IMG/VR virus record: IMGVR_UViG_3300045284_000132
Reading direction: 5' to 3' (one strand)
Origin: an uncultured virus (IMG/VR IMGVR_UViG_3300045284_000132)
Lineage: Duplodnaviria > Heunggongvirae > Uroviricota > Caudoviricetes
DNA length: 64,000 bases
Below, piece after piece: positions 627 to 28,207 of the stretch; the first letter of the stretch is position 1; every line of letters begins with the position of its first letter. The translations under genes were made by a program, and so were the position numbers. The notes beneath the pieces were generated by a model. The model was not told the origin of the DNA and made no database searches. It worked only from the letters and a program-made list of their open reading frames with translations.

Positions 627-1003
627 GCTTTCTCCGCTATTGAGTCGATCCTGCCACCATGCCTTGCAGCGCGCGCAATTTCAAGTTCTGCCTGAAACCA
701 TTCCACACGTGTAACTGTAGGCTTTGAGTCTGCGACCGGTCGCCACAGGAAGCTATACGGCGCTTTCCAGATCGCGACACAATCGCGACGCTGCCGCCTG
801 CAATGTCTTTGATTGTCAGGCACTTAGCAGGCATCGGCACGTTCCCTACAAGAGAATAAGACAAGCCAGACGCGTCCAGCGTATGCTATAAGAAAGCACC
901 GGAAACATTGATGTTTGCTAGGTCCGGCTGTATACGACTGATGCACGCTAGCGGTGATTTTCGCGATCATCGCGACACCGATACGACACTCAGGAGCCCT
1001 CCG

Positions 1004-10187: not shown

Positions 10188-10723
10188 TTGGAATGTGTCA
10201 GCCGTCACAGACATCGGGGCGCGCAATTGACGACTCTAGCAGACGACGGCGGAAGTCCGTGAGGCCCCACGCTTCCGCCGTCAGCAGGGCAAGAACATCG
10301 GCCAATGCAACTGTCCCGCCACTGCGCACTCTAACGCGCGGTGAAGATCAGCGCCAGCGCAAGGCCGACTAGCAGCAGACACAGAAAAATGTTTTCGGAA
10401 TAGATCAGGACCGCAAGCGAGGCTGCGAGCAGACTGAAGCTGGCGAACGCGCGCATCATGTCCATACGAGCACACAGCGAGCCATCAACAACTATAGCAT
10501 CGTTGCTGCGGCCATTGGCGTTGCAACAAGTAAGCGTCGCATACCATTAGCATCGACATCTTATCCACATCCATCAACAGCGAGATTGTCGCGTCAACGC
10601 ACCACATCTTGCGATCATAACTGAAATCCGATTCCCACCTTTGACATTTCGCGCGTGCGGGATGACGCTTGCGTGACACTCGGCACGCGCGTCTCACTAA
10701 AAAGAAAATCGGGAGTGGCTTCG

Positions 10724-12262
10724 ATGCCCAACGACGACGTTGGCGGCACGTCGTATGAGGATGATGAGATAGATGAACACGAACGACGCGAAACCATAGT
10801 CGAGGGAATTTATCGCGAAGCGCTCGCGTCGCTCTCGCGCAGTCTCGCGCAGGCGAAAGATGAGCCGACGCGGCAACACGTGTTCGAGAATGCGGTCGAT
10901 GAAGTCATCAACAAGTGGCATGGGCTCGATCGCAGTGACGCTTTCGCCGCCTTGCAGGACATCGCTGATGCGCGTGGCTTTGATACGAATTGGACACAGA
11001 ACGTTTTTGCGGAAGCGGTCGCGCGAGAGCCGCAGCCCAAGCCGAACGGCAACGGTCACGCTCAGCACGCCTACGGCGATGCCGAGTATCCGCCCCACAC
11101 TGACACGCCGAAAACCGGGCCGATAGATGCGACGCTATATGTCCTGCCCGATCCTCTTTCGATTCCGCCGCGCCCTTGGCTTTACGAACGGCATTATATT
11201 CGCGGCTCAGTTACTAGTACGGTTGCGCCCGGAGGATTTGGTAAAACCAGTCTCGGATTGTTTGAAGCGATCAACATGGCGAAGCGTGGGTTGGCGATCT
11301 GGTACATCAGTGGCGAAGACGATCGCGTTGAGCTTGATCGGAGAATAGCGGCGTTTCAGGAATTATATCCCGAGGATTTTCCAACCCGATTTTTCTTAGA
11401 CGACAAAATGACGTTCCCTTTCAAAATTGCGCGTCAATCAAATAAGAGCGGGCCAGTATTTGATGAGGAGCGCATGCGCAATTTCGAAGGAATCATCGCA
11501 GCGCGTGAGCTTGATGTGGTGATGCTCGATCCGTTCATATCATTTCACTATTTGAGCGAGAGCGACACGACAGCGATGGACGTGTTGATCAAACGGTTAG
11601 GTGAAATTTGTTTTAGACGCCAATGTTGCATCGAGCTAAGCCATCACGTGCGCAAGCCAAATACCAATCAAACTGAAATCACGGTGTATGATGCACGTGG
11701 CGCTGGCGCGATCGTCAACGCTGTGCGCTCCTGCCGGGTGATCAATCAAATGAGCATAGTCGAAGCTGCCGCGTGCGCGATCGATCTTGATAAGCGTAGT
11801 CGCTACATTCGTGTTGACAGTGGCAAGCGCAACATGGCTCCAAGCGAACGGGCAAAATGGTATCGACTTTCATCTATTGAGATTGCGAATGGCGACAACG
11901 TTCAAGCAATCGAAGCGTGGGAATTCAAACCACAAACTCCGACTGACGCAGACACGGAATGGCTGAAGGTGATCCTGACGGCTCGCGAATACGCCGCCGA
12001 TCCGCGCTCTGATGAGTGGATCGGTATTCCGATCTGTGAGCATTTTGGTCGAGCGCTTGGCGAAACGAAAGATGAAAAACGGGCGTCGGCTATATTCGTC
12101 AACAAACAACTAAGAAAGTGGATGGACGATCATTTGATTGAAAAGCAGTCGCGCTATAACGCCGAGACGCGCAAGGATCGTACCTATATCGTGCTGAAAA
12201 ACAAGCCTACGTTTACAACAACGACGCAGGCAACAACAGAATCGGAGGCGGCAGATGATTGA
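10724..12262 (+). CDS. AAA_25 / RepA-like replicative helicase (RecA-like ATPase)
   Basis: Walker A APGGFGKTS, ISGEDD, Walker B VMLDP, HHVRK, ARGAGAIVNAVRS. Confidence 0.85.
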   Translation: MPNDDVGGTSYEDDEIDEHERRETIVEGIYREALASLSRSLAQAKDEPTRQHVFENAVDEVINKWHGLDRSDAFAALQDIADARGFDTNWTQNVFAEAVAREPQPKPNGNGHAQHAYGDAEYPPHTDTPKTGPIDATLYVLPDPLSIPPRPWLYERHYIRGSVTSTVAPGGFGKTSLGLFEAINMAKRGLAIWYISGEDDRVELDRRIAAFQELYPEDFPTRFFLDDKMTFPFKIARQSNKSGPVFDEERMRNFEGIIAARELDVVMLDPFISFHYLSESDTTAMDVLIKRLGEICFRRQCCIELSHHVRKPNTNQTEITVYDARGAGAIVNAVRSCRVINQMSIVEAAACAIDLDKRSRYIRVDSGKRNMAPSERAKWYRLSSIEIANGDNVQAIEAWEFKPQTPTDADTEWLKVILTAREYAADPRSDEWIGIPICEHFGRALGETKDEKRASAIFVNKQLRKWMDDHLIEKQSRYNAETRKDRTYIVLKNKPTFTTTTQATTESEAADD

Positions 12263-14055: not shown

Positions 14056-14676
14056 ATGCCCGATCGCCAAGTCACCGTTGATTTCAACATCAAGGATTTC
14101 ATCGCGGCTGCTGAGCGTATCGAAGGTGCCACTCAAGTCCTGCCCTACGTCATCGCAAACTTGTTGAACGACGGCGCTTTCAAAACGCGCCAAGTCCTTG
14201 TGCAAGATACGTGGCCCACTCACGTAAACGCCAGAAATAAAAACTTCATCAGCGCTGCGCTTCGAGTTGAGAAAGCAAACAAGAATAATCTCGAAGTGAA
14301 AATCTATGATCAGTTAGATCGTGGGCATCTAAAGAAACACGCAGAGGGTGGTACTAAACAAGCACGTGGGAACAACATCGCAATCCCTGATGAAGCAAAC
14401 GTTCGAAAAGGTGCAGGCGGCGTTTATAAATCACAACTGCCAAGCAGCATCATAGCGCGCACACCTAAGCGAGCACTGCGTATAACAACACATGGCATAT
14501 TTGTTGGTCGTGGTGGTCGTCTAGTGCGCATGTACTCACTAAAGCCGACAGTAGAAATAAAAGCCGATGTGCCGTTCTACAAAGACTTCCAGTATGTCAT
14601 GTTGAATGCTGTTCGCACTGGCTTTGCTGATGCAGTGGCATTCTCCTTGCGCAGACAAGCAGAGAGAAACAAATAA
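14056..14676 (+). CDS. Conserved phage protein, possibly virion morphogenesis
   Basis: 206-aa basic protein just before the packaging-site region. Confidence 0.55.
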   Translation: MPDRQVTVDFNIKDFIAAAERIEGATQVLPYVIANLLNDGAFKTRQVLVQDTWPTHVNARNKNFISAALRVEKANKNNLEVKIYDQLDRGHLKKHAEGGTKQARGNNIAIPDEANVRKGAGGVYKSQLPSSIIARTPKRALRITTHGIFVGRGGRLVRMYSLKPTVEIKADVPFYKDFQYVMLNAVRTGFADAVAFSLRRQAERNK

Positions 14677-14685
14677 CATCCTTCC

Positions 14686-15030
14686 TACTTGTTGATAGGC
14701 CAGCTATCCACCCTATGCCCCTGACGCGTTCGTGTTGATATGCTACTTGTTGATCAAACAAACTATTTGATCCATCCCCCCTCCCACTTGGGACCTAGTG
14801 CTTGATGCCATGTTGTGCTAGTTGTTGTTGATGTGAGTTGTTGTTGATGCGCCAGTTGTTGATAGCCAGTTGTTGATGCGCTCTGCCAGTTGTTGATGCG
14901 CCAGTTGTTGTTGATCGTCCAGTTGTTGTTGTTGCTCCCACTCCTTGATCCCAGTTGTTGTTGTTGATGCTAAGATGGGGTCCTGTGTGGGGCGATCAAC
15001 AACAAGTACCCCACCCCAGTTGTTGATAGG
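14686..15030 (+). repeat. Array of about 11 (CC)AGTTGTT(GTT)GAT motifs
   Basis: Directly visible, e.g. 14820, 14836, 14852, 14866, 14886, 14901, 14919, 14951, 15016; one inverted copy near 14995. Confidence 0.9.
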
Positions 15031-15044
15031 AAAAAACACAGGAG

Positions 15045-15108
15045 GGGTCCTGCTGTCACAATCAAGGAAAGCGCTCATGCGCGAGCCCGATGTTTGAAAA
15101 TATTCCCG
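15045..15108 (+). other. Candidate cos (packaging) site
   Basis: GGGTCCT (lambda cosQ sequence) at 15045-15051, then a dyad GCTC-ATGCGC-GAGC and TTTGAAAATATTCCCG; the phage has a lambda GpA-type terminase. Confidence 0.5.
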
Positions 15109-15272
15109 TGTCGCGGATTGCATGTCTGCTCAGAGTAGGCCAATACTCCCCATCGTGCGAAGCGCTGGGAAGCTCGCTGGCGCGCTGCAGGTTCGAGCTT
15201 GATCGATCGAGCACGCGTCGAGTTAGGGCGCACTAGATCGCGCCATAATCGAATTGGGATGACATCGCACCG

Positions 15273-15899
15273 ATGACGGACACAGCCACAGCAGGGTTTC
15301 CCGACGTTTCGAAAGCTGAGCGCGAGCACGGCAAAAAGAGCAAGGGCGGGATAGACTTTCTCGCTGAGCATGTCGAACGCTGGCCGATCAGGAAGTTGTT
15401 TGCGAACAAGCGCAACGCGAAGCGGCATTCGCACGAACAGATTGCGCAGATCGCAGCCTCGATCAAGCAGTGGGGCTGGACGATGCCGATCCTTGTGAGT
15501 GACAGCGGCGAGATACAAGCTGGCGAGGGACGCTGGCTTGCGGCGAAGTCGCTCGACATCGAAGACGTGCCGGTGATTGTCGCGCGCGGCTGGTCGAGGA
15601 ATAAACGGCGGGCATACATGCTCGCGGACAATCGGATCGCCGAGAATGGTTCGTGGGACAAGGACGTGCTCGCGATCGAGCTTGGCGATCTGCGTGCCAG
15701 CGGGTTTGATGTGACGCTGACGGGTTTCAGTCAAAAGCAAATTGAAAATCTATTGCCGAAAGACGAAGCGGATGGCGACGGGTTGCAGTTGGGCGAGAAG
15801 TTTCAGATCATCGTCATCTGCGAGAATGAACAACAACAGCGTCAACTATTAGACAAGCTGCACAAGGACGGCGTCGAATGTCGGGCGCTAGTTGCATAA
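15273..15899 (+). CDS. ParB-like domain protein of the type linked to phage DNA-modification genes
   Basis: NAKRHSHEQIAQIAASIKQWGWTMPILV...IQAGEGRWLAAK...LADNRIAENGSWD. Confidence 0.88.
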   Translation: MTDTATAGFPDVSKAEREHGKKSKGGIDFLAEHVERWPIRKLFANKRNAKRHSHEQIAQIAASIKQWGWTMPILVSDSGEIQAGEGRWLAAKSLDIEDVPVIVARGWSRNKRRAYMLADNRIAENGSWDKDVLAIELGDLRASGFDVTLTGFSQKQIENLLPKDEADGDGLQLGEKFQIIVICENEQQQRQLLDKLHKDGVECRALVA

Positions 15900-17023
15900 A
15901 CGTAGAAATTGAAAACGAAAGTCAGATCGTCCGATCATCCCGCGTGATGCAGGTCGAGGGACTGTTTGATGTCCCACAAGCGCAGCGATCCGTCTCACGG
16001 TTCAACGTTTATCTGCCGCTACACGAAAGAGATTGGAACATCGGGCTGATCGTCGGGCCATCGGGCGCTGGCAAGAGCACGATCGCACGCAAGGCATTCC
16101 CTGAAGCATACTGCACGGGGTTCAACGATTGGCCGGAAGACGGTGCAGTTGTTGAAGCGTTTCCTGCTGAGATGTCGATCAAGGACATCACGCTGCTGCT
16201 GGCGTCCGTAGGTTTCTCATCGCCGCCTGCGTGGCTGCGACCATTCAGAACGCTGTCGAACGGCGAGCAATTCAGGGCGACGCTTGCGCGAGCGCTGGCA
16301 CAGTATCAAGAGCTTTGCGTGTTTGATGAATTCACTAGTGTTGTTGATCGCGTTGTCGGCAGGATCGGCTCATCCGCTGTTGCGAAGACAGTACGGCGGC
16401 GCGGGCAGCGCTTCATTGCGGTGACGTGTCACGACGATGTCACCGAATGGCTGGACCCGGATTGGGTTTACACGCCCGTCAGCAATTCGTTTCAATGGAG
16501 GTTACTTCGGGGTCGCCCCGCAATCGATCTTGAAATCGCCCGCGTTCACCATTCGGCGTGGAAAATATTCTATCGCCATCACTATCTGAGCCGCGATCTA
16601 AACAAAAGCGCGGCATGCTTTTGCGCTTTCATCGAGGGACGACCGGTTGCATTTCAGGCAGCGCTGCCGTTCGTCGGGCGATTGAGCACAAAGCAAAAGG
16701 CAATGCGCGGTTCTCGACTAGTAACGCTGCCCGACTATCAGGGCGTGGGCATCGGGCATCGTCTGGTCACAACGTTGGGCGGGATGTGGAAAGCACTCGG
16801 GTTGCGCGACTTCAGACCTAGCGGGCACATTGCTGAAATTGTTGCTGCTAGCAAGGACCCGAATTGGAAACTGATCCGCACGCATAGTCGCACCGCGCAT
16901 GACAGCGATAGCAGTCTATCAAGAACACGCGCATCCAATCGGCTGACGGTTTCATTCGAGTACGTCGGCCCAGCAATGGAAAAGGACAAAGCTGTTGCGC
17001 TGTTCAACTCGCGAGCTTGGTGA
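15878..17023 (+). CDS. ABC-type ATPase fused to a GNAT acetyltransferase
   Basis: GPSGAGKST, LSNGEQ, FDEFTS, VTCH; C-terminal acetyl-CoA-binding motif RLVTLPDYQGVGIG. Confidence 0.85.
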   Translation: MSGASCINVEIENESQIVRSSRVMQVEGLFDVPQAQRSVSRFNVYLPLHERDWNIGLIVGPSGAGKSTIARKAFPEAYCTGFNDWPEDGAVVEAFPAEMSIKDITLLLASVGFSSPPAWLRPFRTLSNGEQFRATLARALAQYQELCVFDEFTSVVDRVVGRIGSSAVAKTVRRRGQRFIAVTCHDDVTEWLDPDWVYTPVSNSFQWRLLRGRPAIDLEIARVHHSAWKIFYRHHYLSRDLNKSAACFCAFIEGRPVAFQAALPFVGRLSTKQKAMRGSRLVTLPDYQGVGIGHRLVTTLGGMWKALGLRDFRPSGHIAEIVAASKDPNWKLIRTHSRTAHDSDSSLSRTRASNRLTVSFEYVGPAMEKDKAVALFNSRAW

Positions 17024-17588
17024 CTTGCAAGCTGCAGGTGTCGCTGTGCTCGAATTATTCCCGCTGCCGCTGATCGGCTGCATCGTCAACGGCGCTGGTC
17101 TTGGGTTAGCAACGCTCGACATCGTGCGCCTGTACGGCGCAACGCCTGCGAATTTTCTCGATCTCGGCGGCAACGTGACGACGACGAAGGGACGCGAGGG
17201 CTACAGGATCGTCAGCAATGATCCGCGCGTGCAGGGCATACTGGTCAACGTGTTCGGCGGGATCGATCACTGCGACATCATCGCTGAGGGCGTGCTGCAG
17301 GGCGTTCGAGAATACGGTTTGCGCGTGCCGATGGTGATCCGTCTGCAGGGAACGCTAGCAGCAGAGGGACGCGCGATCGTTGAGCGCGAGAATCATCCCG
17401 GCATTCTCGCGCTTGATGATCTTGATGAAGCAGCGCAAGCGATCGTGCACGCTGTGCAGATGTGTGAGAGCTTTCCGCCCGCAAAGCGGAGAGTGGTGGG
17501 GACGGCAAGTATGCCGGACAGGCGAGCTTGCCCGCCCCTTGGAGTCTCGGCGGTTCGTGCTGACGCGTCCGCCGAGACTACCAAGTAA
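16995..17588 (+). CDS. sucC: Stand-alone C-terminal CoA-ligase domain of succinyl-CoA synthetase beta subunit (no ATP-grasp domain)
   Basis: IGCIVNGAGLGLATLD, PANFLDLGG, ILVNVFGGI..CDIIAEG, VPMVIRLQGT match the SucC C-terminal domain. Confidence 0.85.
   Translation: MRCSTRELGDLQAAGVAVLELFPLPLIGCIVNGAGLGLATLDIVRLYGATPANFLDLGGNVTTTKGREGYRIVSNDPRVQGILVNVFGGIDHCDIIAEGVLQGVREYGLRVPMVIRLQGTLAAEGRAIVERENHPGILALDDLDEAAQAIVHAVQMCESFPPAKRRVVGTASMPDRRACPPLGVSAVRADASAETTK
17545..17579. terminator. Hairpin between convergent transcription units
   Basis: GTCTCGGCGG...CCGCCGAGAC. Confidence 0.4.
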
Positions 17589-17597
17589 CAAACAAAT

Positions 17598-18200
17598 TCA
17601 TCTCCGCTTCAGTATCTCGGACGGTTTCAAATCTAGCATGCCGCGCAGAACGCCAAGTGCGAGATTGAATTCCTGTTGTTTCATTGGCAGAAGTCCTTGC
17701 TCTCCGCGCGTCTCGGCGACGCGTAAAAAGTTTAGAATTTGCCGACGATCTTCCGATTGCGGTTGATTCCAAGTATAGAAATCAGCCATCGTTTCTCTCC
17801 TTTGTCCGATTGAACAAGATGGCGATGCGCTCGGGAACAACGACGCTGTCGTTGCACTTGCGACAGCATCGCCCGTTGTTGATCGGCTGCGCGTTGTGCC
17901 CGCCTGCCCAACCGGTTTCTGGTTCCGTCTCGATCGGCTGTTTGCAGATGCTGCAGATCAGTTGCTTGCGCTTCATTTTCCGTTTCCGTTTTGTGAGAGG
18001 CGTTTGCGCCCTTTGTCGTTAATCCAATAGCGCGTGACTTTGAAGCGCAGCGCGTTACAGCCGCAGTCCTGTTCCGCGATGCGCACTAAGTGTTGTTGTT
18101 CGAGCATCATGATTTCGGCGTCGCGAATGCCGTTGACTTTGAGCGCGTGATAGGTCGCCCCATCGGGACAGCCTGCCAGTATCGTGAGAGCTTTGTGCAC
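17598..18200 (-). other. Three short coupled hypothetical genes (about 17598-17790; 17782-17976 with CxxC motifs; 17973-18200)
   Basis: Overlapping starts and stops; CSIC...CCRKC. Confidence 0.55.
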
Positions 18201-18481
18201 TATCGCCTCCCGCCGCCGTAGGTCGAGCCGGTCGAACCGGTGCGAGAGCCGCCCGCGTCATAGAAGTTGCGCCCGCCGCTGCCGGTCGGCGACGACGTGC
18301 CGGTCGAGTTGCCGCGCGAGTCGTAGTAGCGCGTGTTGCCTTGGCTGTCGGTCGCTGCAGTGCCGACGTGATTGCCGCGCGAGTCGTAGAATGGTCGATC
18401 AGTCGTCTGCGCATGCGCGCACGACAGCGCGACTGCAACAGCCATGACGGCAACAATGCCGCCAGTCAGAACGTACTTCAT
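18200..18481 (-). CDS. Small secreted protein with YDxxGxxxG repeats
   Basis: Signal peptide MKYVLTGGIVAVMAVAVALSCAHA; repeats FYDSRGNHVGT / YYDSRGNSTGT / FYDAGGSRTGS; SD GGAG. Confidence 0.7.
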   Translation of the reverse strand: MKYVLTGGIVAVMAVAVALSCAHAQTTDRPFYDSRGNHVGTAATDSQGNTRYYDSRGNSTGTSSPTGSGGRNFYDAGGSRTGSTGSTYGGGRR

Positions 18482-18562
18482 GATTGTTTCTCCGCTATTC
18501 GTGCACGATTGCACGCGCATGTGCCGCGCCGCTGTGACGGCTGACACATGGACTTGCAATCA
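18482..18562 (-). promoter_or_regulatory. Degenerate structured leader (long stem plus alternative hairpin; lacks the CUUGCA hairpin)
   Basis: UGAUUGCA..CAUGUGUC...GGCACAUG..UGCAAUC starting at the upstream stop codon; alternative hairpin CGUGCA-AUCG-UGCACG. Confidence 0.5.
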
Positions 18563-18826
18563 ACGAACGATGCGCAGGCGCGGCTTAGATTTGCCTTGCA
18601 ATCGCTGCAGCGCTCGACGCGCCGCTTGCTCTGCCGTTTCGCGATGCGGCTTTGTCAGCGCTTCGGGATCGCGCGTCAGCCGATCGCCAGTCGCCGCGTT
18701 GCCGTTGGCTGTGACAAATCGCGGCGTCAGTCTGATGTTGCGACACTTGTGATGCGGCGGGCGCGCGTTCGGATCGTGCCACCAATTGCCGGTGCGAGGC
18801 ATAGTTTGCTTGCTGGTTAGTTTCAT
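18560..18826 (-). CDS. Hypothetical basic protein
   Basis: ATG follows the conserved leader (GGAGCCUAGCUAUG). Confidence 0.7.
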   Translation of the reverse strand: MKLTSKQTMPRTGNWWHDPNARPPHHKCRNIRLTPRFVTANGNAATGDRLTRDPEALTKPHRETAEQAARRALQRLQGKSKPRLRIVR

Positions 18827-18918
18827 AGCTAGGCTCCGTGGTTCAAAGGCTCGATGCAAGTCGAGCAGTCAGCTTATACCACGATCAAGGCAAACTTGAA
18901 AAGCGATATAAGGCTGAC
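18827..18918 (-). promoter_or_regulatory. Conserved structured leader, copy 7 (hairpin and SD core; upstream stem differs)
   Basis: GCUCGA-CUUGCA-UCGAGC...ACGGAGCCUAGCU-AUG. Confidence 0.8.
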
Positions 18919-18974
18919 AGCGACGCGCTCAGCTTTACGCTAAGCTAACACGCACGTGCAGGACTTTTGATTGC

Positions 18975-19004
18975 TTGCTTGTCGCCGCGATCGGGTGTTA
19001 GAAC
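18975..19004 (+). promoter_or_regulatory. Putative sigma70-type promoter for the antisense sRNA
   Basis: TTGCTT (18975-80), 18-nt spacer, TAGAAC (18999-19004) preceded by TGn (extended -10). Confidence 0.5.
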
Positions 19005-19010
19005 CTGATC

Positions 19011-19140
19011 AGTCGCTCGATGCGCTAGGCTCCTATCGTGCACAAAGCGTCGAGCAATTAGAGCGGGAAGTATTCATGCAAGTGCTTCGCCCGTTCCCAT
19101 AAAAAAGGGGCGGCTCTCGCGAGAGAGTCGCCCCTTGGTG
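19011..19140 (+). ncRNA. Putative trans-acting antisense sRNA complementary to the repeated leaders
   Basis: Three hairpins with G-U pairs that form only on the + strand; UAGGCUCCU (19026-34) and AUGCAAGU (19076-83) complement the leader SD and loop; last hairpin has a GCGA tetraloop. Confidence 0.7.
19101..19136. terminator. Intrinsic terminator, probably bidirectional
   Basis: AAAAAA-GGGGCGGCTCTC-GCGA-GAGAGTCGCCCC-TT; U6 tail on the minus strand. Confidence 0.85.
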
Positions 19141-19189
19141 CTTGGTGCAAGATCATCGTGATCTGATCAAGAAGTGTATCAACAACAAC

Positions 19190-19417
19190 TTAGTGCAGCG
19201 ACGAGCTTTGATGCATGCGATAGAACGCGAGATTGCTTGCGCGTTCCTTGGCGTCTTTTGCCCATCGACAGTTTCCCGGTTCGAACGAACGTCGATCGGG
19301 ATCGAGCATCGTGATCCAACTGAGCGCGTGCCAATCGGACTCTGTCATCGGCTCTGCGCCTTTCGTAAACTTCATCATCGCTTCGTATGCTTTGCGTCCG
19401 TCTGATCGTTTCATCAC
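19190..19417 (-). CDS. Short degenerate HNH-like protein
   Basis: ITMLDPDRRSFEPGNCRWA resembles the HNH C-terminal motif; ATGA-coupled to the ASCH gene. Confidence 0.5.
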   Translation of the reverse strand: MMKRSDGRKAYEAMMKFTKGAEPMTESDWHALSWITMLDPDRRSFEPGNCRWAKDAKERASNLAFYRMHQSSSLH

Positions 19418-19809
19418 AAAGCTCCGTGACGTTTGAGTGTAGCGAGCACATGATCGGGCGCATCGCGTAAACCGAGACTGCCGCCCGTCAACACAAACGG
19501 GAAGCGTCGCGCGTTTTCGAACACGAATGCATACGGTCCAATGAAGTATTTGCTGCGATGATGTTCGACTACATCAACAAGATCAGCAATTCCAATCACT
19601 GCACCCGTTCGCATGTCGTCGGGATATATATCGCGCAGTGCGCCGCCACGTTCGCAAACGATGTCGGACACGTCGCGATCATCCCACTTCAGACCGGCGT
19701 GAATTAGAACCGGCCCGCGATATTCCGTTGACCACGTGCGATTCTCGACAGGCTTGATACCCGCGACAATCAACGCAGCCCACGGCTGACGTACAGTTAG
19801 CATTTTCAT
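19414..19809 (-). CDS. ASCH domain protein
   Basis: MLTVRQPWAALIVAGIKPVENRTWSTEYRGPVLIHAG. Confidence 0.92.
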   Translation of the reverse strand: MKMLTVRQPWAALIVAGIKPVENRTWSTEYRGPVLIHAGLKWDDRDVSDIVCERGGALRDIYPDDMRTGAVIGIADLVDVVEHHRSKYFIGPYAFVFENARRFPFVLTGGSLGLRDAPDHVLATLKRHGAL

Positions 19810-19916
19810 TGTAGGCTCCTGTAACGTTGAGACGCGATGCAAGTCGCGTCAGTGTTCATCATGAACACTAGCAAGGACAGCGCGCGATTGCTCGCGCGTG
19901 CCCTTGGTGGTGCTCA
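19810..19916 (-). promoter_or_regulatory. Conserved structured leader, copy 6
   Basis: UGAGCACCACCAAGG..GCAA loop..CCUUGCUAGUGUUCAU-G-AUGAACACU-GACGCGA-CUUGCA-UCGCGUC..CAGGAGCCUACA-AUG. Confidence 0.9.
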
Positions 19917-20387
19917 GCGTTTCGTTTTCTTGCTACGCTTCGGCGTTTTGTGCAAGCGCATGATGCGACGAAAGTGCGCGCCGCTGATCTTGCGATGCTT
20001 CAACAACTCGAACGCGATGGCAATGATTTCGCTGCGATACAGCGTCACCATTTCGTGCGCTTGTGCGCATGCTGCGCGTCCGATGCGGAGATGACCACGC
20101 TGCTTGAAGCAGTTGATCAACGTCTCATGAAACGCTAGCAGATCGCGATCGCTGCCGCCGATATCGTCGCCGAGAATGACGTGTTCGGCTTCAACGCCCG
20201 CACGATCAACAACAAGATCGTCAAATGGTTCTGCACAGTAGCGCGACTGCGTGAGACCGCGACCATCGTGCAACAGCTTCGCCCATTCGACGTGTCGATC
20301 GCCATCGAGCACATATCCGATGACCATGTGACCGGCTTCATGCATTGCTACGTGAAGTCGATGTTTGCTTTTGGAGAATTTCGACAT
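19914..20387 (-). CDS. Small Zn-metalloprotease-like protein (HEXXH, FtsH/M41-protease-like domain)
   Basis: AMHEAGHMVI, AGVEAE, GSDRD. Confidence 0.75.
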   Translation of the reverse strand: MSKFSKSKHRLHVAMHEAGHMVIGYVLDGDRHVEWAKLLHDGRGLTQSRYCAEPFDDLVVDRAGVEAEHVILGDDIGGSDRDLLAFHETLINCFKQRGHLRIGRAACAQAHEMVTLYRSEIIAIAFELLKHRKISGAHFRRIMRLHKTPKRSKKTKR

Positions 20388-20490
20388 TGTAGGCTCCTGA
20401 GTTTGATTGCTCGCGATGCAAGGCGCGAGAGTGATCGATGATCACTAGCAAAGCGTCACGCGTTGAAGCGTGACGCCTTGGTGGCGATCA
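20388..20490 (-). promoter_or_regulatory. Conserved structured leader, copy 5
   Basis: UGAUCGCCACCAAGG...CUUUGCUAGUGAUC-AUC-GAUCACU-CUCGCG-CCUUGCAU-CGCGAG..CAGGAGCCUACA-AUG. Confidence 0.9.
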
Positions 20491-20748
20491 GTCTCCTGAT
20501 TCGTGTATGTGCTGAATGTAATACTCGCGAATCTCGCGAGCAGCATTGATCAGCGTGTCATAGTCGTAGGTGACGGGCTCGACTTGCTTCGCGTACAACG
20601 GCAGCACGCGATCGCGAATCCAATCCATCCACCCCATGACGCTGAGGTTATTGCGAGCCATCAGCTTGTGCAACTGATAAAACTCGCCAGTGTTAGTCGT
20701 GAACAGAACGAGGTCGTGCTGTTCGATCAGGCGTGGCGGGTTTTTCAT
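20488..20748 (-). CDS. Hypothetical protein (86 aa)
   Basis: ATGA-coupled to the upstream ORF. Confidence 0.7.
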   Translation of the reverse strand: MKNPPRLIEQHDLVLFTTNTGEFYQLHKLMARNNLSVMGWMDWIRDRVLPLYAKQVEPVTYDYDTLINAAREIREYYIQHIHESGD

Positions 20749-20966
20749 GACTGATAGACCTCCGCGTCAGCCCAACTGACTTGCGGCCAATTCTGCGGCT
20801 GCTTCGTTTCGAGACCGCGATGGAAGCGGTAGCGATTTTCGTGTGCGAAGCACGCGCAGCACAAGATAAGATTGCCGCCGCCGCCGAGAGGATAGATACG
20901 AACCTCGCCAAACGTTGATCGACAATAACTGCCACTGCAGTTTGCGTTGTGAGTCTTGTAGGACAT
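20745..20966 (-). CDS. Small Cys-rich (putative Zn-binding) protein
   Basis: NCSGSYC...GGNLILCCACF; follows a conserved leader. Confidence 0.75.
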   Translation of the reverse strand: MSYKTHNANCSGSYCRSTFGEVRIYPLGGGGNLILCCACFAHENRYRFHRGLETKQPQNWPQVSWADAEVYQS

Positions 20967-21062
20967 TCTTAGGCTCCTGATAGAGAAAACGCGATGCAAG
21001 TCGCGTTAGTGTTCGTTATGAACACTATGAGACGGCGCAACGCGCGCCGTCCTTAGTGATCA
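20967..21062 (-). promoter_or_regulatory. Conserved structured leader, copy 4
   Basis: UGAUCACUAAGG...CUCAUAGUGUUC-AUAAC-GAACACU-AACGCGA-CUUGCA-UCGCGUU..CAGGAGCCUAAGA-AUG. Confidence 0.9.
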
Positions 21063-21110
21063 GTGATGTCGAGCTAGCATGCGAGTCGATATGACTGCTC
21101 GCTCGGTGCA

Positions 21111-22616
21111 TCAGTGGGCACCTACGTCAATGCCCGGAGCATTCCAAGGAGTGCGCTTCAGATATTCGCGCACGACTTGCGGATAGCCCGTGACAGCAAA
21201 CAGAACCGGGCAATCAGGCTCGGGTCCGGGGCTGTCAAATTCTAGATCAGTGAAGTTAACGATCAGGGAAGCGTCAGGCTCATTCTCTGCTACCCAATCA
21301 AACAATGGGCGCATGTCAGTGCCACCGCCACCCTTCGGGTCGAATTCGATTTGATCGGTTGAAACGTATCGATCAACTCGGGTGACGCGCGTGTCACCGT
21401 AGACCACGATCGCTTCGTTGATTGCTCCGTCGTCAAGCGCGCCTTGCGCTTCACGCGCGACACAAGCGAGCGCAATGTCATCCATTGAACCCGAAGTGTC
21501 GATCAGAAACACGACTTTGTTCACACCGTCGCGCTGCGTGCCGGGAAGTATCATTCCCTGCCCGATGAAGCGGCGGTTCGGTCGGTTCCACGTTGCAATT
21601 GTAGTTGCGCCCTGATCGATCCAAGCTCGAAAGACTTCGCGCCAATCTTGCTTCGGTTCGTTCATGCGCGCAATCTCGCGAGTCATGTAACCCGGCAGAT
21701 CGCCCGCTTTCTTTGCGAGTGCGATTGCTTGCCGCGTTATCACTTCCCAACGCGAGTCTTGCTCAGCGATTTCCGCTTGCGTGTCTGCGGCGTCTAACAC
21801 TTCGCCGCACATGCCGGGATCGCCGCTGCTTTGCGGCTCGCTGTCGTCAGCGTCAGTGTCGCTCACAGCGTTGCCGCTGTCAGTTTCACTGTCGTCACTG
21901 TCGGCATTCGCTTGACCGTTACCAGTCGCGCTCGCGCTGTCAGTTTCGTTAGCGGCGTCGTCGTCGCTGTCACCGTTGCCGGTGGCGCTTTCGTCGTCGT
22001 CGCTGTCGCTGTTGCCGTCGTCGCTTTCGTCGGCGTCGTCACCTTGTTGATCGTTGCCGTTGTCGTCGGCGTCAGTGTCGCTTTCGTCAGCTTCACTGTC
22101 GTCGTTCGTTTCGTCGCTGTCGTCGTTCGACTGTTCATCGTTCGACTCGTTTTCGTCAGCGTCGTTGGCATCGTCGTCACTCTGTTGCTGTTGTTGCTGT
22201 TCGCGTGCTCGATCAAGCTCACGACAGCGATAAATATCTTCGGCAGACATACCTTGATATTTGGGATCGAACAAGCGTCCCTCGGGAAGCTCGAACCCTT
22301 CAGACAACAAGTCACCGTTGATGGCAAGATCACAGCAGATATTCCATTCCTGATGATCACGAAAACCGCGTCGAGATGAATGGTGGCGGGCATCGTGTTC
22401 GGTTTCGTGCGCTTGTACGCCCAGCAATTGCTTTTGCGTCAGCTTCGCAACGAATTCAGGATTGTAGAAGTGAGTCTTACCGTCAGTCGCCATCGTGGGC
22501 ACAGCCCGCGTTGGCTTCGGCATGACGTTCGCGACTAGCGTGCCGTAGAACACGCGCGACGCGATCAACTCGGCGCGAGCTTTTAGAATGCGCTCGGCTT
22601 GGAGTTTGTCAGTCAT
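21111..22616 (-). CDS. DUF2201-type putative metallopeptidase with acidic linker and VWA-like domain
   Basis: TMATDG, HETEH, WNICCDLAIN; D/S/N-rich linker; IDTSGSM, GGGGTDMRP, FTDL. Confidence 0.88.
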   Translation of the reverse strand: MTDKLQAERILKARAELIASRVFYGTLVANVMPKPTRAVPTMATDGKTHFYNPEFVAKLTQKQLLGVQAHETEHDARHHSSRRGFRDHQEWNICCDLAINGDLLSEGFELPEGRLFDPKYQGMSAEDIYRCRELDRAREQQQQQQSDDDANDADENESNDEQSNDDSDETNDDSEADESDTDADDNGNDQQGDDADESDDGNSDSDDDESATGNGDSDDDAANETDSASATGNGQANADSDDSETDSGNAVSDTDADDSEPQSSGDPGMCGEVLDAADTQAEIAEQDSRWEVITRQAIALAKKAGDLPGYMTREIARMNEPKQDWREVFRAWIDQGATTIATWNRPNRRFIGQGMILPGTQRDGVNKVVFLIDTSGSMDDIALACVAREAQGALDDGAINEAIVVYGDTRVTRVDRYVSTDQIEFDPKGGGGTDMRPLFDWVAENEPDASLIVNFTDLEFDSPGPEPDCPVLFAVTGYPQVVREYLKRTPWNAPGIDVGAH

Positions 22617-22726
22617 TGTAGGCTCCTGATGTAGTAGGACACGCGATGCAAGTCGCGCGAGCGATCGAATGATCACTAGCAAACGCAGCGCGCTGATTTC
22701 TCAGCGCGTGCGCTTGGTGGCGATCA
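22617..22726 (-). promoter_or_regulatory. Conserved structured leader, copy 3
   Basis: UGAUCGCCACCAAGC..GAAA loop..GUUUGCUAGUGAUC-AUUC-GAUCGCU-CGCGCGA-CUUGCA-UCGCGUG..CAGGAGCCUACA-AUG. Confidence 0.9.
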
Positions 22727-23779
22727 AGCAAGATATTTCGAAACGTCGGCGAGAATTTCTTCCGCTGACTTTTGCACAGACACGCGAACACTGTCATCCT
22801 TGCGGAGTGTTTCGGCATCGTCACCGCACAACTCTTTCAGAATGCGATCAGTGATCTGCGTCAGTGTCTTGTCGCCGGTCATGTTGAATGACGGCAGCAA
22901 GCGTCCAAGCTCGCGGACATTCTCGACAAGCGAGTCGGTGAAAAAAGCGCGCTGCGCAGTGTCAGGCGCTTTTTTCTTTTGGGCGCTCATGTATTTGATG
23001 GCGTCAGATTTCTTGGCGAAATCTTTAGAGTTGCCATCAGGACTTTGAACGCACCACGCGTTTTTGCGATTGGTCTTGAACAGTGACCACGCGCTGTTGC
23101 TGCTGAGCGTCGTTGTATACTCAGCAAGTTTTTCTGCCATGTGACCCACGACTTTTGCGATTTGCTCATGTGTGTGTTTCATGACGTTGTTAGTTGCTTG
23201 CTGACTGCAGGCTTCGATTTCTGCTCTGATGTCGGCTTCAGTGTCGGCATCTAAGTCTGATCGAAAGTCGGCAGCATCAGGCAGGCTGCTGATATGCAGA
23301 TCGAGTTGAAACTTTGATCTGATCTCGCTTGCTGCCGGATAATCTGCAGCGTTGAACAGCGTGCCAAGATTGGCACGACGCTCCTCAACATATTGCGGAT
23401 AGTCGCGGCAGAAGTCGTCAGCAGCTTGATGAAAGTCGCGCTTGATTTCTCGAAACTTAGTTGAGAATTCACCAAACAACGCGTTTGGCAACACGCGCGC
23501 GCCCTCATCTGCCCACGGCTTTGTCATCTTGTAATGCAAAGCACGTGCGGCGCTTACCATTTTTGTGATCGCTTCCAATCGCTCGGCTTCGATCAACAAC
23601 TTGTTGTAGCGCCCTGCATTCTCGGCTGCACCGTGTTTTTCGTTCACTTCGCGAGTGACGCGCTTGTCAAGTCGTCGCGCTGTCCACTGTGAGATGGTGA
23701 CAGACGCTAGGACTGCTTTGCGCGACAGCGGCGAAGCAACTGGCGCAGTCGAAGTCAGCATTTGGGTTTTAGCTAACAT
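22724..23779 (-). CDS. DUF3150-like phage protein
   Basis: AVLASVTISQWTARRLDK, TKPWADEGARVLP, LGTLFNAADYP, LLPSFNMTGD; lies between the AAA and DUF2201 genes. Confidence 0.65.
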   Translation of the reverse strand: MLAKTQMLTSTAPVASPLSRKAVLASVTISQWTARRLDKRVTREVNEKHGAAENAGRYNKLLIEAERLEAITKMVSAARALHYKMTKPWADEGARVLPNALFGEFSTKFREIKRDFHQAADDFCRDYPQYVEERRANLGTLFNAADYPAASEIRSKFQLDLHISSLPDAADFRSDLDADTEADIRAEIEACSQQATNNVMKHTHEQIAKVVGHMAEKLAEYTTTLSSNSAWSLFKTNRKNAWCVQSPDGNSKDFAKKSDAIKYMSAQKKKAPDTAQRAFFTDSLVENVRELGRLLPSFNMTGDKTLTQITDRILKELCGDDAETLRKDDSVRVSVQKSAEEILADVSKYLA

Positions 23780-23875
23780 TGTAGGCTCCTGATAGTTTGA
23801 AAGTAACCCGATGCAAGTCGGGAGCGTTCGGGATGAACACTATGACAGCGCCCGTGGGCGCTGCTTTAGTGATCA
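23780..23875 (-). promoter_or_regulatory. Conserved structured leader, copy 2
   Basis: UGAUCACUAAAG...UCAUAGUGUUC-AUCCC-GAACGCU-CCCGA-CUUGCA-UCGGG..CAGGAGCCUACA-AUG. Confidence 0.9.
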
Positions 23876-24874: not shown

Positions 24875-24979
24875 TGTAGGCTCCTGATAGTTAGGAAATG
24901 CTCGATGCAAGTCGAGCAGATACGCGACAGCGCATCATGAGACAGTCGAGCAAATTTATCACTCGACTGTCCTTGATAC
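24875..24979 (-). promoter_or_regulatory. Conserved structured leader, copy 1
   Basis: GUAUCAAGG...CUCAUGAUGCGC-UGUC-GCGUAUC-UGCUCGA-CUUGCA-UCGAGCA..CAGGAGCCUACA-AUG. Confidence 0.9.
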
Positions 24980-25608: not shown

Positions 25609-26265
25609 ATGGCCGATGAAGCTGGAATCATCTCAACTGATGTCGCGGTCAAGTTGTTGTTGCTCGATAACGCAAAGGAGTTGCAAGCGCTATCAGCGGC
25701 GGGCTGGTTTAATCGCGTGGGGATCAACCGGTGGCGCACTGTTGAATTGGTGCACGGTCGCATCAAACAATTGAAGCAAGCCGCAGATCTTGTCAGCAGC
25801 GGTCGCCTCGCAGAAATATTCAACGTGCATCACACACAGCTTTTGAAGCTCGAACGCGAGGGCTGGTTTCGACGCGAAGCGAACAATCAATGGTCGCTGA
25901 TCAAAGTCATCGGCGGGGTCATGCGCTACTACACGGACCCGGCGCGTCGCGCGAATAAGTCAGCGACAGAGTCGAGGGTCGGTCAAGCTCGCGCGCGAGA
26001 AATCGAGTTGCGCACGGCGCAGCGCGCTGGCGAATTGTGCGAGACTGCGGAAGCTGTCGCGCTGGTCGATGACATCGTTGGAATGCTACGCGCTGATCTG
26101 TCGGGGTTGCCTGCAATGGTAACGCGTGATCTTGTTATCAGGCGCGACATTGAAAAGGCGTTGAATGACATCCTCAATCGAATCTCGGCGCGTCTCATCT
26201 TGCAAGCCGACAGTTTGGAAAAGAGCGGGGAAGTTGCTATCCGTCCCGTCGCTCTCGACTCCTGA
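25609..26265 (+). CDS. terS: Terminase small subunit (Nu1-like)
   Basis: HTH-like N-terminal half and coiled coil ARAREIELRTAQRAGEL; immediately before the large subunit. Confidence 0.8.
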   Translation: MADEAGIISTDVAVKLLLLDNAKELQALSAAGWFNRVGINRWRTVELVHGRIKQLKQAADLVSSGRLAEIFNVHHTQLLKLEREGWFRREANNQWSLIKVIGGVMRYYTDPARRANKSATESRVGQARAREIELRTAQRAGELCETAEAVALVDDIVGMLRADLSGLPAMVTRDLVIRRDIEKALNDILNRISARLILQADSLEKSGEVAIRPVALDS

Positions 26266-28207
26266 CGAATGGGCGACGCACAATCGAACCTACCCGCGCA
26301 CTGCCGCCGTACCGGGACCGCGCGATCCGCTGCTGACGCCCTACGTGGTGCAGATCGAGCGCGCGATTGCGGGATGTCTCACGAAGCGGATCGTCGTCGT
26401 CACTGCAGCGCAGGCTGGCAAAACTGATCTGCTGCTCGACGTGGCGGGCTGGCGTCTCGATCAGCGGCCCGCGCCGATCCTGTACGTCGGGCCGAACAAG
26501 CAATTCCTAACTGAGCAATTCGAGCCGCGCATCATGCTGCTGCTCGATGAAGCGCCGAGTCTCGCCGACAAAGTCGCGCGCGGAAAGCGCATGACGAAGA
26601 CGCGCAAAATAATTGCAGGCGTTCCGTTTCGTCTCGCGCATGCCGGATCGTCGGCGGCGTTGAAGTCCGATCCTGCCGCGCTGGCACTTGTTGATGAATA
26701 CGATGAGATGCTGGCGAACATCAAAGGGCAAGGCGATCCGCTTGGCCTAGTCGAGCGACGCGGAGACACGTATGCCGATTTCTGTTGCGCTGTTACTTCG
26801 ACGCCGAGACGTGGCGTCGCGGAATCACTGCGCGATGAGACAAGCGGCTTGATTTTCTGGTGCGACGCGCCAGCGGAAGACATCTATGAGAGTCCGATCT
26901 GGCGGCTATGGCAGCAAGGATCGAAGCATCATTGGTGCTGGCCTTGTCCGCAATGCAAAAGCTATTTCGTCCCGCGCTTTGATTTGATGCAATTCGATCA
27001 CACGCTGCCGCCTGTTGAGGCGGCGAAGTCGGTTTATTTGCTGTGCCCGTCATGCGGCGGCATTATCAATAACAGTCACAAAACATGGATGAACAGCAAG
27101 GGGCTGTTCGTTGCGCCCGGTCAACACGTCGAGGATGGCGCGGTCGTCGGCGAAGCGCTGACGACTGACACGCTTTCGTATTGGGTTTCAGGTCTCGCGT
27201 CGCCGTTTGTGACGTTCGAGGATCGCGTCAAGTCATATCTGCAAGCTGCAGAGATGAACGATCCCGCGATGGTGCAGACGGCGATCAACGCTGGCTTCGG
27301 CGAGCTATATGCACCGGGCGGCGGGAACATCAAGGATTGGCAGCGCGTCGCGCAGCGCAAAGGTACGCATCGCTTTGGTGAATTGCCTGATGAAGTCGTG
27401 CGCGTGTCGGCAGCGATCGACGTGCAAGGCAACGGCTTCTATTATTCGATCAGAGGGTGGGGCGCGCGCGCAACGTCGTGGCAGATCGAAAGCGGTGAGC
27501 TTGCGGGTTACACCGATGAGCCTGAAATCTGGAACGATCTAGCGCATACGCTGACGCAAACATTCGACGGTTTGCCGATCTTGCTCGCGCTGATCGATAC
27601 TGGCTTTCGCCCGAACAAACCGAATTCAGGATCGGACAACGTCACCTACGAATTCTGCCGACGCTTTCGGCGGTTCGTGCGCCCAACGAAAGGATGGGCG
27701 ACGCTGTCGGCACCTATCATGCGCGGCAAAACTCACGTCACGATGCCGGGGCAGCGCGCTGAGATTGGATTGGAATTGGTTCGTCTCGATACCGATTTCT
27801 GGAAACAGCGATTGCATGAACGCTTAGCGTGGCCCGAAAATCAACCGGGCGGATTCTGGCTGAGTGCGGATGCGACTGAGGATTATTGTCGTCAGTTAGT
27901 TAGCGAAGTGCGCACCGTGACGCCATCAGGACGTGCGGAGTGGGTACAGATCGGCAAGCGCAATCACTATCTCGATTGCGAATCAATGAACGAAGCGGCT
28001 GGGCATTTGTTGAATGCTCAAAAAATTCCTGTGGGGATGACGCGCAGCAAAGGCATGGTGCCCACTGCGCCAACAACTCCAACGCAACCGCAAGCAGCGG
28101 AAGCGCAGACGCCTGTCAACGCGCAGCAAACACAACAACGACGCGGGTGGCTTGGCGGTAACAAGACATCGCTCCGTGATCGCGGAGGATGGTTGCAACC
28201 ACGATAA
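26165..28207 (+). CDS. terL: Terminase large subunit, lambda GpA family; start uncertain
   Basis: AAQAGKT, VDEYD, TSTP, CPQC/CPSC, IDVQ, IDTG, RNHYLDC. Confidence 0.95.
   Translation: MTSSIESRRVSSCKPTVWKRAGKLLSVPSLSTPDEWATHNRTYPRTAAVPGPRDPLLTPYVVQIERAIAGCLTKRIVVVTAAQAGKTDLLLDVAGWRLDQRPAPILYVGPNKQFLTEQFEPRIMLLLDEAPSLADKVARGKRMTKTRKIIAGVPFRLAHAGSSAALKSDPAALALVDEYDEMLANIKGQGDPLGLVERRGDTYADFCCAVTSTPRRGVAESLRDETSGLIFWCDAPAEDIYESPIWRLWQQGSKHHWCWPCPQCKSYFVPRFDLMQFDHTLPPVEAAKSVYLLCPSCGGIINNSHKTWMNSKGLFVAPGQHVEDGAVVGEALTTDTLSYWVSGLASPFVTFEDRVKSYLQAAEMNDPAMVQTAINAGFGELYAPGGGNIKDWQRVAQRKGTHRFGELPDEVVRVSAAIDVQGNGFYYSIRGWGARATSWQIESGELAGYTDEPEIWNDLAHTLTQTFDGLPILLALIDTGFRPNKPNSGSDNVTYEFCRRFRRFVRPTKGWATLSAPIMRGKTHVTMPGQRAEIGLELVRLDTDFWKQRLHERLAWPENQPGGFWLSADATEDYCRQLVSEVRTVTPSGRAEWVQIGKRNHYLDCESMNEAAGHLLNAQKIPVGMTRSKGMVPTAPTTPTQPQAAEAQTPVNAQQTQQRRGWLGGNKTSLRDRGGWLQPR

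Follow-up and report, generated by a model that had tools for sequence, protein, structure and literature searches.

Why does a phage carry a single domain of a Krebs-cycle enzyme, and why directly behind a putative DNA-modifying acyltransferase? We addressed these questions in IMGVR_UViG_3300045284_000132, a soil-metagenome contig from an uncultured member of the Caudoviricetes. The whole stretch analysed, 64,000 nucleotides, is called the window, and it belongs to a temperate, contractile-tailed (myovirus-like) phage or prophage. Three open reading frames (ORFs) follow one another on its plus strand (Table 1). The first encodes a short ParB-fold protein. The second encodes an ABC-type ATPase fused to a GNAT acyltransferase (ABC-GNAT, or ORF2). 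The third encodes the C-terminal domain of SucC, the beta subunit of succinyl-coenzyme A (CoA) synthetase. The first-pass annotation of this DNA had proposed these three ORFs and their domains (ParB-like, ABC-ATPase/GNAT, and the SucC C-terminal domain with the NGAGL and FGGI motifs kept), and we find both the positions and the domain identities to be right.

In the third gene, the C-terminal CoA-ligase domain of SucC stands alone and has diverged. It represents a new and very small family, with two members found, that is a lineage-specific accessory to the module. ParB and ABC-GNAT add an ordinary new member to a phage module that is known and whose activity is predicted. Our best explanation of the whole, which we hold tentatively, is an accessory domain tied to acyl-CoA handling, possibly through the host SucD.

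A SucC domain without the rest of the enzyme

The third ORF matches the Ligase_CoA family (PF00549) with 75.5 bits (cut-off 24.5). It covers positions 259-386 of 388 in the SucC model NF001913 and misses the whole-protein cut-offs, with 156.9 vs 370 bits for NF001913 and 136.6 vs 375.55 bits for TIGR01016. Compared with E. coli SucC, the similarity lies in residues 258-386 (phmmer, 7.6e-33). Likewise, residues 258-386 are matched when the core is compared with the beta chains of succinyl-CoA synthetase (SCS) in the Protein Data Bank (PDB). A SucC-profile hmmsearch of the three plus frames of 16000-17700 gives a single match, at 17073-17459, with 177 bits.

The absence of an ATP-grasp domain and of a sucD gene from the window had been stated before, and the searches confirm it. 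Pfam scans of the ORFs show no ATP-grasp domain (PF08442/PF13549). Six full-length SucC queries in tblastn match 17073-17459 alone, plus one weak ungapped extension. Twelve full-length SucD queries over the 64-kb window give a best E of 0.15, and there is no remnant of the SucD N-terminus at 17400-17900, where the scores are negative. A resemblance to a frame-shifted sucD in locus L176 was rejected as chance.

The NGAG, GG and FGGI glycine loops are retained in the SucC-domain ORF. The NGAG and FGGI loops presumably belong to the phosphohistidine/succinate site. Two loops present substitutions. They consist of GGNVT instead of GGGAT, and of GGIDHCD instead of GGI(M/V)(R/K)CD. The canonical residues of these loops occur at 91-100% in 44 SucC domains.

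In the AlphaFold 2 (AF2) model, the core residues 21-158 are confident and the ends have low confidence. Foldseek superposes the core on 2fp4_B with a root-mean-square deviation (rmsd) of 1.3 A over 128 columns, and on 2scu_B with 1.7 A over 126. Canonical sequences were in the alignment used for the model, and a SucC fold is thus expected. The guanine-cytosine (GC) content by codon position is coding-like in the core (0.71/0.41/0.70). In the C-terminal tail it is flat (0.61/0.65/0.65), lacking coding periodicity, and the model suggests that these 42 residues are probably disordered.

The gene has three options for its start. With TTG 16995 (197 aa), AAGGA stands 8 nt upstream and the ORF overlaps ABC-GNAT by 29 nt. 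TTG 17025 (187 aa, P0001) is the choice of the gene caller. GTG 17046 (180 aa) has AGGTG 5 nt upstream, and P0381, the stand-alone relative described below, aligns best with this start. The trio had been described as overlapping throughout. The overlap of 22 nt between ParB and ABC-GNAT is real, but the one between ABC-GNAT and the SucC-domain ORF requires a start at TTG 16995.

Two contigs encode exactly the 187-aa product. In an independent soil run, a contig of the related X2 strain covers 16214-17866 without gaps and differs at 20 places, so the arrangement is not an assembly artefact. The public runs that contain the stretch are soil metagenomes, and no RNA run is listed among them.

One stand-alone relative shares the altered loops

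Word-indexed searches of 5.8 billion proteins gave nearest matches of ~60-62% identity, all of them canonical SucC or pieces of it. In the ESM Atlas, the matches fall in generic clusters of short proteins with a CoA-ligase domain, and many of these carry a fragment label. An exhaustive HMMER search of 1.84 billion representatives recovered P0381. This protein has 161 aa, its own Met start and no ATP-grasp domain, and it is 51% identical to the SucC-domain ORF. The fragment is therefore not unique, as the first-pass annotation had allowed it might be: it has one diverged stand-alone relative.

Other searches gave no further member. The SucC-domain ORF matches no PHROG family. Scans of viral contigs with this ORF alone, with ORF2 alone, and with the alignment of the ORF and P0381 found no relative; one viral-contig locus matching residues 4-37 (E 6e-4) was spurious. 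All 65 loci from the metagenome scan are canonical sucC with 36-63% identity; the scan also missed the window's own contig and the sibling contigs. Apparent metagenome matches past the end of SucC run through stop codons. A full sucC is present in 4 of 50,697 phage records (tblastn), and we judged it to be cellular sequence within those records.

The GGNVT and GGIDHCD loops occur, among 513 fetched proteins, in the SucC-domain ORF and P0381 only. They have in common 20 residues that occur rarely (<=5%) in the 44 canonical SucC domains. As a control, each canonical sequence was scored by the same rare-residue measure, and the scores averaged 0.77 and never exceeded 4. This control is what counts, since P0381 itself went into the definition of the signature. 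The other 386 SucC-like proteins compared carry at most 4 of the 20 signature residues each. In a tree of 135 domains, the SucC-domain ORF and P0381 form a clade (SH-aLRT 96). Their similarity also runs ~12 residues past the canonical SucC end, where the first ~12 residues of the window tail resemble the tail of P0381. The two proteins are thus a distinct two-member clade of stand-alone domains. Because of the loop changes, the 20 common residues, the clade and the similarity beyond the SucC end, we infer with good support that both descend from one capture of bacterial sucC.

We then compared the 66 canonical columns conserved at >=90%. Both members keep 33 of them, including the NGAG, GG and FGGI loops. 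Another 10 changed to the same new residue in both, and 8 changed to different residues in the two members. Changes in the window ORF alone affect 2 columns, and changes in P0381 alone affect 13.

Such substitutions could result from a new function. The small domain might have taken a role unrelated to CoA chemistry, for example as a regulator or partner of ParB/ABC-GNAT, or as an anti-defence protein reusing the Rossmann-like fold. The long branches (stem 0.53, tips 0.44 and 1.91, vs a median tip of 0.16) agree with this, as do the unusual amino-acid make-up, the 10 columns with a common new residue plus the 8 changed differently, and the lack of a PHROG family. However, the glycine-rich NGAG, GG and FGGI loops, which are typical of the ligand site, are still kept in both members. 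We consider this explanation unlikely.

The gene seems to be under purifying selection

P0381 and P0242, the closest relative of the window ABC-GNAT, are both singletons, each seen on a single Logan contig 2049 nt long. Together their genes take 1638 nt and leave ~410 nt for a cut ParB gene. P0242 and P0381 are very probably neighbours on one contig, with the gene order conserved. If they share this contig, the order of ABC-GNAT followed by the SucC domain is kept in two phages. Co-occurrence of the SucC domain with ABC-GNAT had been suggested as a check. It is found in 0/160 related loci, but P0381 and P0242 very probably provide one case.

Between the two phages, ABC-GNAT differs at 30% of the residues and the SucC domains at ~50%. 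In neutral simulations (substitutions only), 50% identity corresponds to ~0.35 substitutions per site. At K>=1, identity falls to <=0.25 and both frames are open in <=0.1% of runs. The mismatches between the ORF and SucC are conservative, with a BLOSUM-positive share of 0.49-0.57 vs 0.28 +/- 0.06 in the neutral simulation. All length differences between the SucC-domain ORF and P0381 are in frame. Since ~50% divergence coexists with intact frames, conservative mismatches and in-frame length differences, the comparison gives good support to purifying selection on the SucC-domain gene, which would evolve about twice as fast as ABC-GNAT. The first-pass annotation had named a lack of purifying selection as a finding that would tell against its proposal, and the divergence pattern argues for selection instead. 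Sibling strains show 0/187 changes in the SucC-domain product, 4/208 in ParB, and 1/358 and 2/381 in ABC-GNAT, too few for a selection test alone.

These data bear on whether the gene is a non-functional relic, that is, a piece of sucC brought in by illegitimate recombination at the junction of the operon and the minus-strand cassette, and now decaying. Several features would fit. The domain is absent from 160/160 related loci and from the viral contig scans, and no cellular SucC is nearer than ~60% identity. At the convergent junction, 10 nt separate the ORF from the opposite operon's end. The ORF also has a non-ATG start, and it continues for 42 codons past the native stop in sequence without coding periodicity. 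Nevertheless, P0381 is intact at 51% identity, with its own Met start and 20 derived residues in common, and what differs is conservative and stays in frame. Had the sequences drifted neutrally while ABC-GNAT diverged by 30%, their similarity would be gone and the frames closed. A relic is therefore disfavoured, and we regard it as improbable.

The ParB and ABC-GNAT genes

ORF2 exceeds the cut-offs of both ABC_tran and Acetyltransf_1; its GNAT part reaches 22.6 bits in PF00583 (cut-off 20.7). The AF2 model has a mean confidence (pLDDT) of 88.9. Structural comparison of the model assigns residues 1-211 to an ABC nucleotide-binding domain (Z up to 15.8, over 1-208), and a GNAT occupies residues 216-365 (1y9k, Z 13.9, rmsd 3.2, 139 aligned; 2bsw, Z 13.8). 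The whole ABC-GNAT model in Foldseek, and a profile search against PDB sequences, returned ABC domains alone.

An alignment of 30 sequences shows the conservation of the motifs in ORF2 and its relatives. The Walker A residues G60, S62, G63, G65 and K66 are invariant. So are S127, G129 and Q131 of the ABC signature, D150 and E151 of Walker B, and H185 of the H-loop. In the GNAT loop, Q288-G289 is invariant, and G291 and G293 are nearly so. We take this Q/R-x-x-G-x-G/A loop to be CoA-binding.

Among 8000 candidates scored, 7877 are relatives of ORF2 at E<=1e-3, mostly of 370-388 aa. The closest, P0242 (70% identity), ends within two residues of the ORF2 end. Of the named phage records, 69 carry a homologue; Gordonia phage Jace (gp86) and Tenacibaculum phage pT24 are among them. 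A frameshift fusion of ORF2 with the SucC domain near 16995-17025 had been considered. The relatives of ORF2, P0242 among them, have the same end and P0381 has its own Met start, which rules the fusion out.

The window ParB consists of an N-terminal nucleotide-binding ParB domain and a small C-terminal domain. No helix-turn-helix domain was detected in it, and Pfam matches the N-terminal domain alone. With 35.1 bits, the protein does not reach the cut-off (58.45) of TIGR00180, the model for canonical partition ParB. It matches phrog_620 (2.6e-45) and phrog_498 (5.5e-45), and it aligns to positions 5-148 of 436 in the PADLOC model MTase_II, a ParB-methyltransferase fusion (7.7e-35).

The ~600 nt 5' of ParB (14676-15273) hold no convincing gene, and the X2 strain has single-base indels there at 15009, 15153 and 15162. 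These indels are consistent with a non-coding region that could hold the operon promoter.

The pair across phages and its downstream slot

We compared 160 ABC-GNAT loci, the best 80 of at least 593 confirmed viral stretches and the best 80 of at least 574 confirmed genome stretches. Among loci with at least 650 nt upstream, a ParB relative lies directly 5' of ABC-GNAT in 95/130 and within three genes in 103/130. A plain tblastn count gives a ParB relative upstream in 90/139 loci. By longest-ORF coordinates, the two genes overlap by 21-30 nt in 41/102 related loci, an upper bound that depends on start choice. ParB and ABC-GNAT are thus a widespread, translationally coupled phage pair.

In most relatives, the terminase genes follow ABC-GNAT closely. 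A cluster of the large terminase subunit (TerL) lies within four genes 3' of ABC-GNAT in at least 60/120 loci with >=3 kb downstream, a lower bound from three terminase clusters counted. In the window, 8.6 kb separate ABC-GNAT from the small terminase gene (TerS, 25609).

The next gene after ABC-GNAT is variable. In 78/145 loci, it is a singleton or belongs to a very small cluster. The Pfam scan took in 140 of these ORFs, the other 5 being covered as cluster representatives, and most had no match. The matches include a family-I CoA-transferase (L020, 2e-34), an AdoMet-decarboxylase-type protein (L060), Amidoligase_2 (L052), a short-chain dehydrogenase (L062), four convergent PIG-L-type de-N-acetylases and three ASCH genes. 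The second gene 3' of ABC-GNAT adds little information.

The PIG-L genes belong to L102, L104, L111 and L119 (Planctomycetota, Gimesia), where they are convergent at ~6130-6870 on the minus strand (1e-26 to 3.5e-28). They stand directly 3' of ABC-GNAT, which is the position of ASCH in other loci. Relatives of the window ASCH gene are found by tblastn in 31/160 loci, and 18 of them are on the minus strand at <=1 kb downstream.

Phage Jace (L227, NC_047974.1, 2956-5721) has ParB as gp85 and ABC-GNAT as gp86, followed by an aspartate decarboxylase (gp87, PF02261, 2e-33) and a CoA-transferase III fragment (gp88, 2.2e-8). The pair gp87-gp88 suggests a beta-alanine/CoA donor route beside the acyltransferase.

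A variable accessory slot is typical of host-directed genes, and the third gene could be one of them. It might act as a decoy that mimics the part of SucC contacting SucD. By titrating out the host alpha subunit, it would switch off or uncouple succinyl-CoA synthetase during infection, independently of ABC-GNAT. In the parent enzyme, and in agreement with the PDB matches, this is exactly the domain that lies against the alpha subunit. In addition, both members keep half of the highly conserved canonical columns (33/66), selection seems to maintain the frame, and the slot holds singletons or small clusters in 78/145 cases. On the other hand, both known occurrences, the second of them inferred, come right after ABC-GNAT, a position that a takeover gene unrelated to it would share only by chance. 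The ligand-site loops also present common derived changes rather than simple retention. We judge the decoy to have a low probability.

A possible role in acyl-CoA supply

Our preferred explanation starts from the pair itself. ParB and ABC-GNAT would move an acyl group from acyl-CoA to a base of the phage DNA before packaging. The slot 3' of ABC-GNAT would then hold lineage-specific accessory genes, some of which might make or handle the acyl donor, and the SucC-derived domain would be one such gene. By analogy with the other slot genes, the context gives modest support to a third gene serving acyl-CoA supply, as the first-pass annotation had suggested. That annotation had proposed that the domain may bind a dicarboxylate, recruit SucD or inhibit the host enzyme, three roles that the evidence does not tell apart.

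The C-terminal domain of SucC presumably sits against the CoA-binding alpha subunit, with its loops around the phosphohistidine/succinate site. In the parent enzyme, this domain and the alpha subunit would form the site where the carboxylate and CoA meet. A stand-alone copy with the GGNVT and GGIDHCD loops could pair with the host SucD and change the acyl-CoA available to the acyltransferase.

Several points weigh against this explanation. Because the ATP-grasp part is missing, the domain cannot power the synthesis of a thioester on its own. Loss of the ancestral ligand site would explain the changes in the two loops equally well. None of the 160 other ABC-GNAT loci has a SucC-domain relative at E<=1e-4 and two members are known, so the gene cannot be a core part of the module. 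The synteny in the second phage rests on the equal lengths (2049 nt) of the contigs with P0381 and P0242. Acyl-CoA-related next genes are a small minority, with 1 CoA-transferase among 140 plus Jace. The start of the SucC-domain ORF is non-ATG and its position is uncertain, and the N-terminal 20 and C-terminal 40 residues are predicted to be disordered. Finally, DNA-base acylation by the ABC-GNAT type is already a published prediction and not an experimental result.

Taken as a whole, the link to acyl-CoA handling through the host SucD is somewhat less than an even proposition. Of the alternatives, we rank the host-takeover decoy first, then a new function unrelated to CoA chemistry, and last a relic in decay.

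A more specific version is a long shot. The SucC domain and the host SucD would form a hybrid with the carboxylate/CoA site only, whose altered loops accept a different carboxylate. It would work in a CoA-transferase-like manner through the phosphohistidine. An unusual acyl-CoA, for example of C4-dicarboxyl type, would then be placed on phage DNA bases by the ParB-guided ABC-GNAT. If this were true, other phages would reach the same end with an aspartate decarboxylase and a CoA-transferase in the same slot.

The ParB/ABC-GNAT pair is present in hundreds of phage and prophage loci, and the genes of the slot may reveal its acyl group. The slot offers as candidates for mass spectrometry the SucC domain, the aspartate decarboxylase with the CoA-transferase fragment, the CoA-transferase, and the deacylases (ASCH, PIG-L). 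If selection maintains one catalytic-site domain of a core Krebs-cycle enzyme on its own in a virus, this would be an unusual case of domain exaptation. It could also be a way of tampering with the host succinyl-CoA metabolism.

Other genes of the window

The remaining features are listed in Table 1. The small convergent gene forms the edge of the minus-strand cassette and ends 10 nt from the stop of the SucC-domain ORF; it matches no Pfam family. A scan for terminator- and promoter-like sites around this convergent junction gave none above the shuffled expectation.

Table 1. Coordinates of the trio and of other features in the window.
Feature	Position	Strand	Evidence
Integrase	908-2224		
Primase/helicase-like gene	10655-12262		
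Trio under study (ParB, ABC-GNAT, SucC-domain ORF)	15273-17588	+	
Short ParB-fold protein, 208 aa	15273..15899	+	PF02195, 37.8 bits (cut-off 26.3)
ABC-type ATPase fused to GNAT acyltransferase, 381 aa	15878..17023	+	phrog_11143 1.6e-99 over 10-368
Stand-alone SucC C-terminal-domain ORF, maximal 197 aa	16995..17588	+	Ligase_CoA PF00549 5.2e-21
SucC-homologous core (CoA-ligase domain, 'domain 5')	17073..17459	+	SucC positions 269-396 of 397
C-terminal tail, 42 aa past native SucC end	17460..17588	+	pLDDT ~50-58
Minus-strand cassette	17598-24910	-	
Small convergent gene, 63 aa	17598..17789	-	GGAGAG 5' of ATG; exact product on 3 contigs
ASCH-domain gene	19414..19842	-	PF04266, 27.6 bits (cut-off 21.2); phrog_3193 3.4e-41
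Terminase small and large subunit genes	25609..28207	+	phrog_57 1e-11, phrog_15 2.2e-155; GpA_ATPase, GpA_nuclease

Further into the cassette, a 119-aa ORF (18200-18559, minus strand) has a hydrophobic N-terminal segment and repeated YDSRGN-like units rich in Gly, Ser and Thr. Its sole Pfam match is weak and sub-threshold (Asparaginase_2). At 18675-18816, the X2 strain concentrates substitutions and small indels, unlike the flanks. The cassette also encodes, all on the minus strand, a short M41-peptidase-like ORF (19914-20387), a DUF2201 metallopeptidase with a VWA-like protein (21111-22682), a DUF3150 protein (22724-23779) and a MoxR-like AAA_5 ATPase (23873-24910, phrog_1297). No PADLOC defence model matched the cassette genes at 19914-24910.

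On the 3' side of the cassette are the small and large terminase, a lambda-type portal, a ClpP-capsid fusion, the sheath, a Mu-like baseplate, fibres and an amidase endolysin. The fusion is one ORF of 765 aa (30699-32996, plus strand) with ClpP-type protease and major capsid protein domains (phrog_133, PF00574 and PF25209). Beyond the lysis genes, an OmpA-like outer-membrane beta-barrel protein is encoded at 60834-61610 on the minus strand. Such a protein is a hint that the host is Gram-negative, whether the gene is a phage moron or marks where host DNA begins.

Comparison with known systems

Iyer et al. 2021 (PMC7824862), citing their 2013 paper, describe a GNAT coupled with an ABC ATPase that is predicted to acylate a DNA nucleobase, with Tenacibaculum phage pT24 as an example. 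ORF2 resembles these phage proteins, with 32.8% identity to that of pT24 (tblastn, 1e-52, 93% of the query covered) and 45.9% to Jace gp86 (5e-95). The window pair has the same ABC and GNAT architecture and the same ParB gene upstream. The first-pass annotation had seen ParB and GNAT genes near terminases as candidates for DNA modification. The candidacy agrees with this prediction and with the pT24 match, but the proximity does not apply here: unlike in most of its relatives, the window pair is set off from the terminase by the 8.6-kb block.

The ParB protein has its own parallels. In PMC13229309, a short phage ParB without a DNA-binding domain, encoded beside a thymine dioxygenase, activates that DNA-modifying enzyme. 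The window ParB has the same reduced make-up as the ParB of these ParB-dependent dioxygenases, a nucleotide-binding and a C-terminal domain. The partner differs, being an ATPase-acyltransferase in the window and a dioxygenase there, and ParB might, by analogy, activate it here. Likewise, the window ParB aligns to the ParB part of the ParB-DNA methyltransferase fusions (phrog_498, PADLOC MTase_II). Unlike them, it has no methyltransferase domain, and a separate ABC-GNAT gene takes its place. Two further papers report ParB-fold fusions to PUA-like and acetyltransferase domains (PMC12704722), and ASCH proteins that include N4-acetylcytidine amidohydrolases (PMC6972931).

For the third gene, a literature search gave no paper combining PF00549 and phage, and a listing on sucC, auxiliary metabolic genes and prophages had nothing on a truncated phage sucC. 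The closest comparison is the SucC C-terminal domain itself (E. coli 2SCU/1JKJ chain B, pig 2FP4 chain B), with homology over 129 residues. Unlike SucC, the window ORF has no ATP-grasp domain and no adjacent sucD, and it presents altered loops and an extra tail predicted to be disordered. It is also phage-encoded and lies beside an acyltransferase. The window and phage Jace thus have the same pair, and they differ in the gene that follows it: a SucC-derived domain in the window, and an aspartate decarboxylase with a CoA-transferase fragment in Jace.

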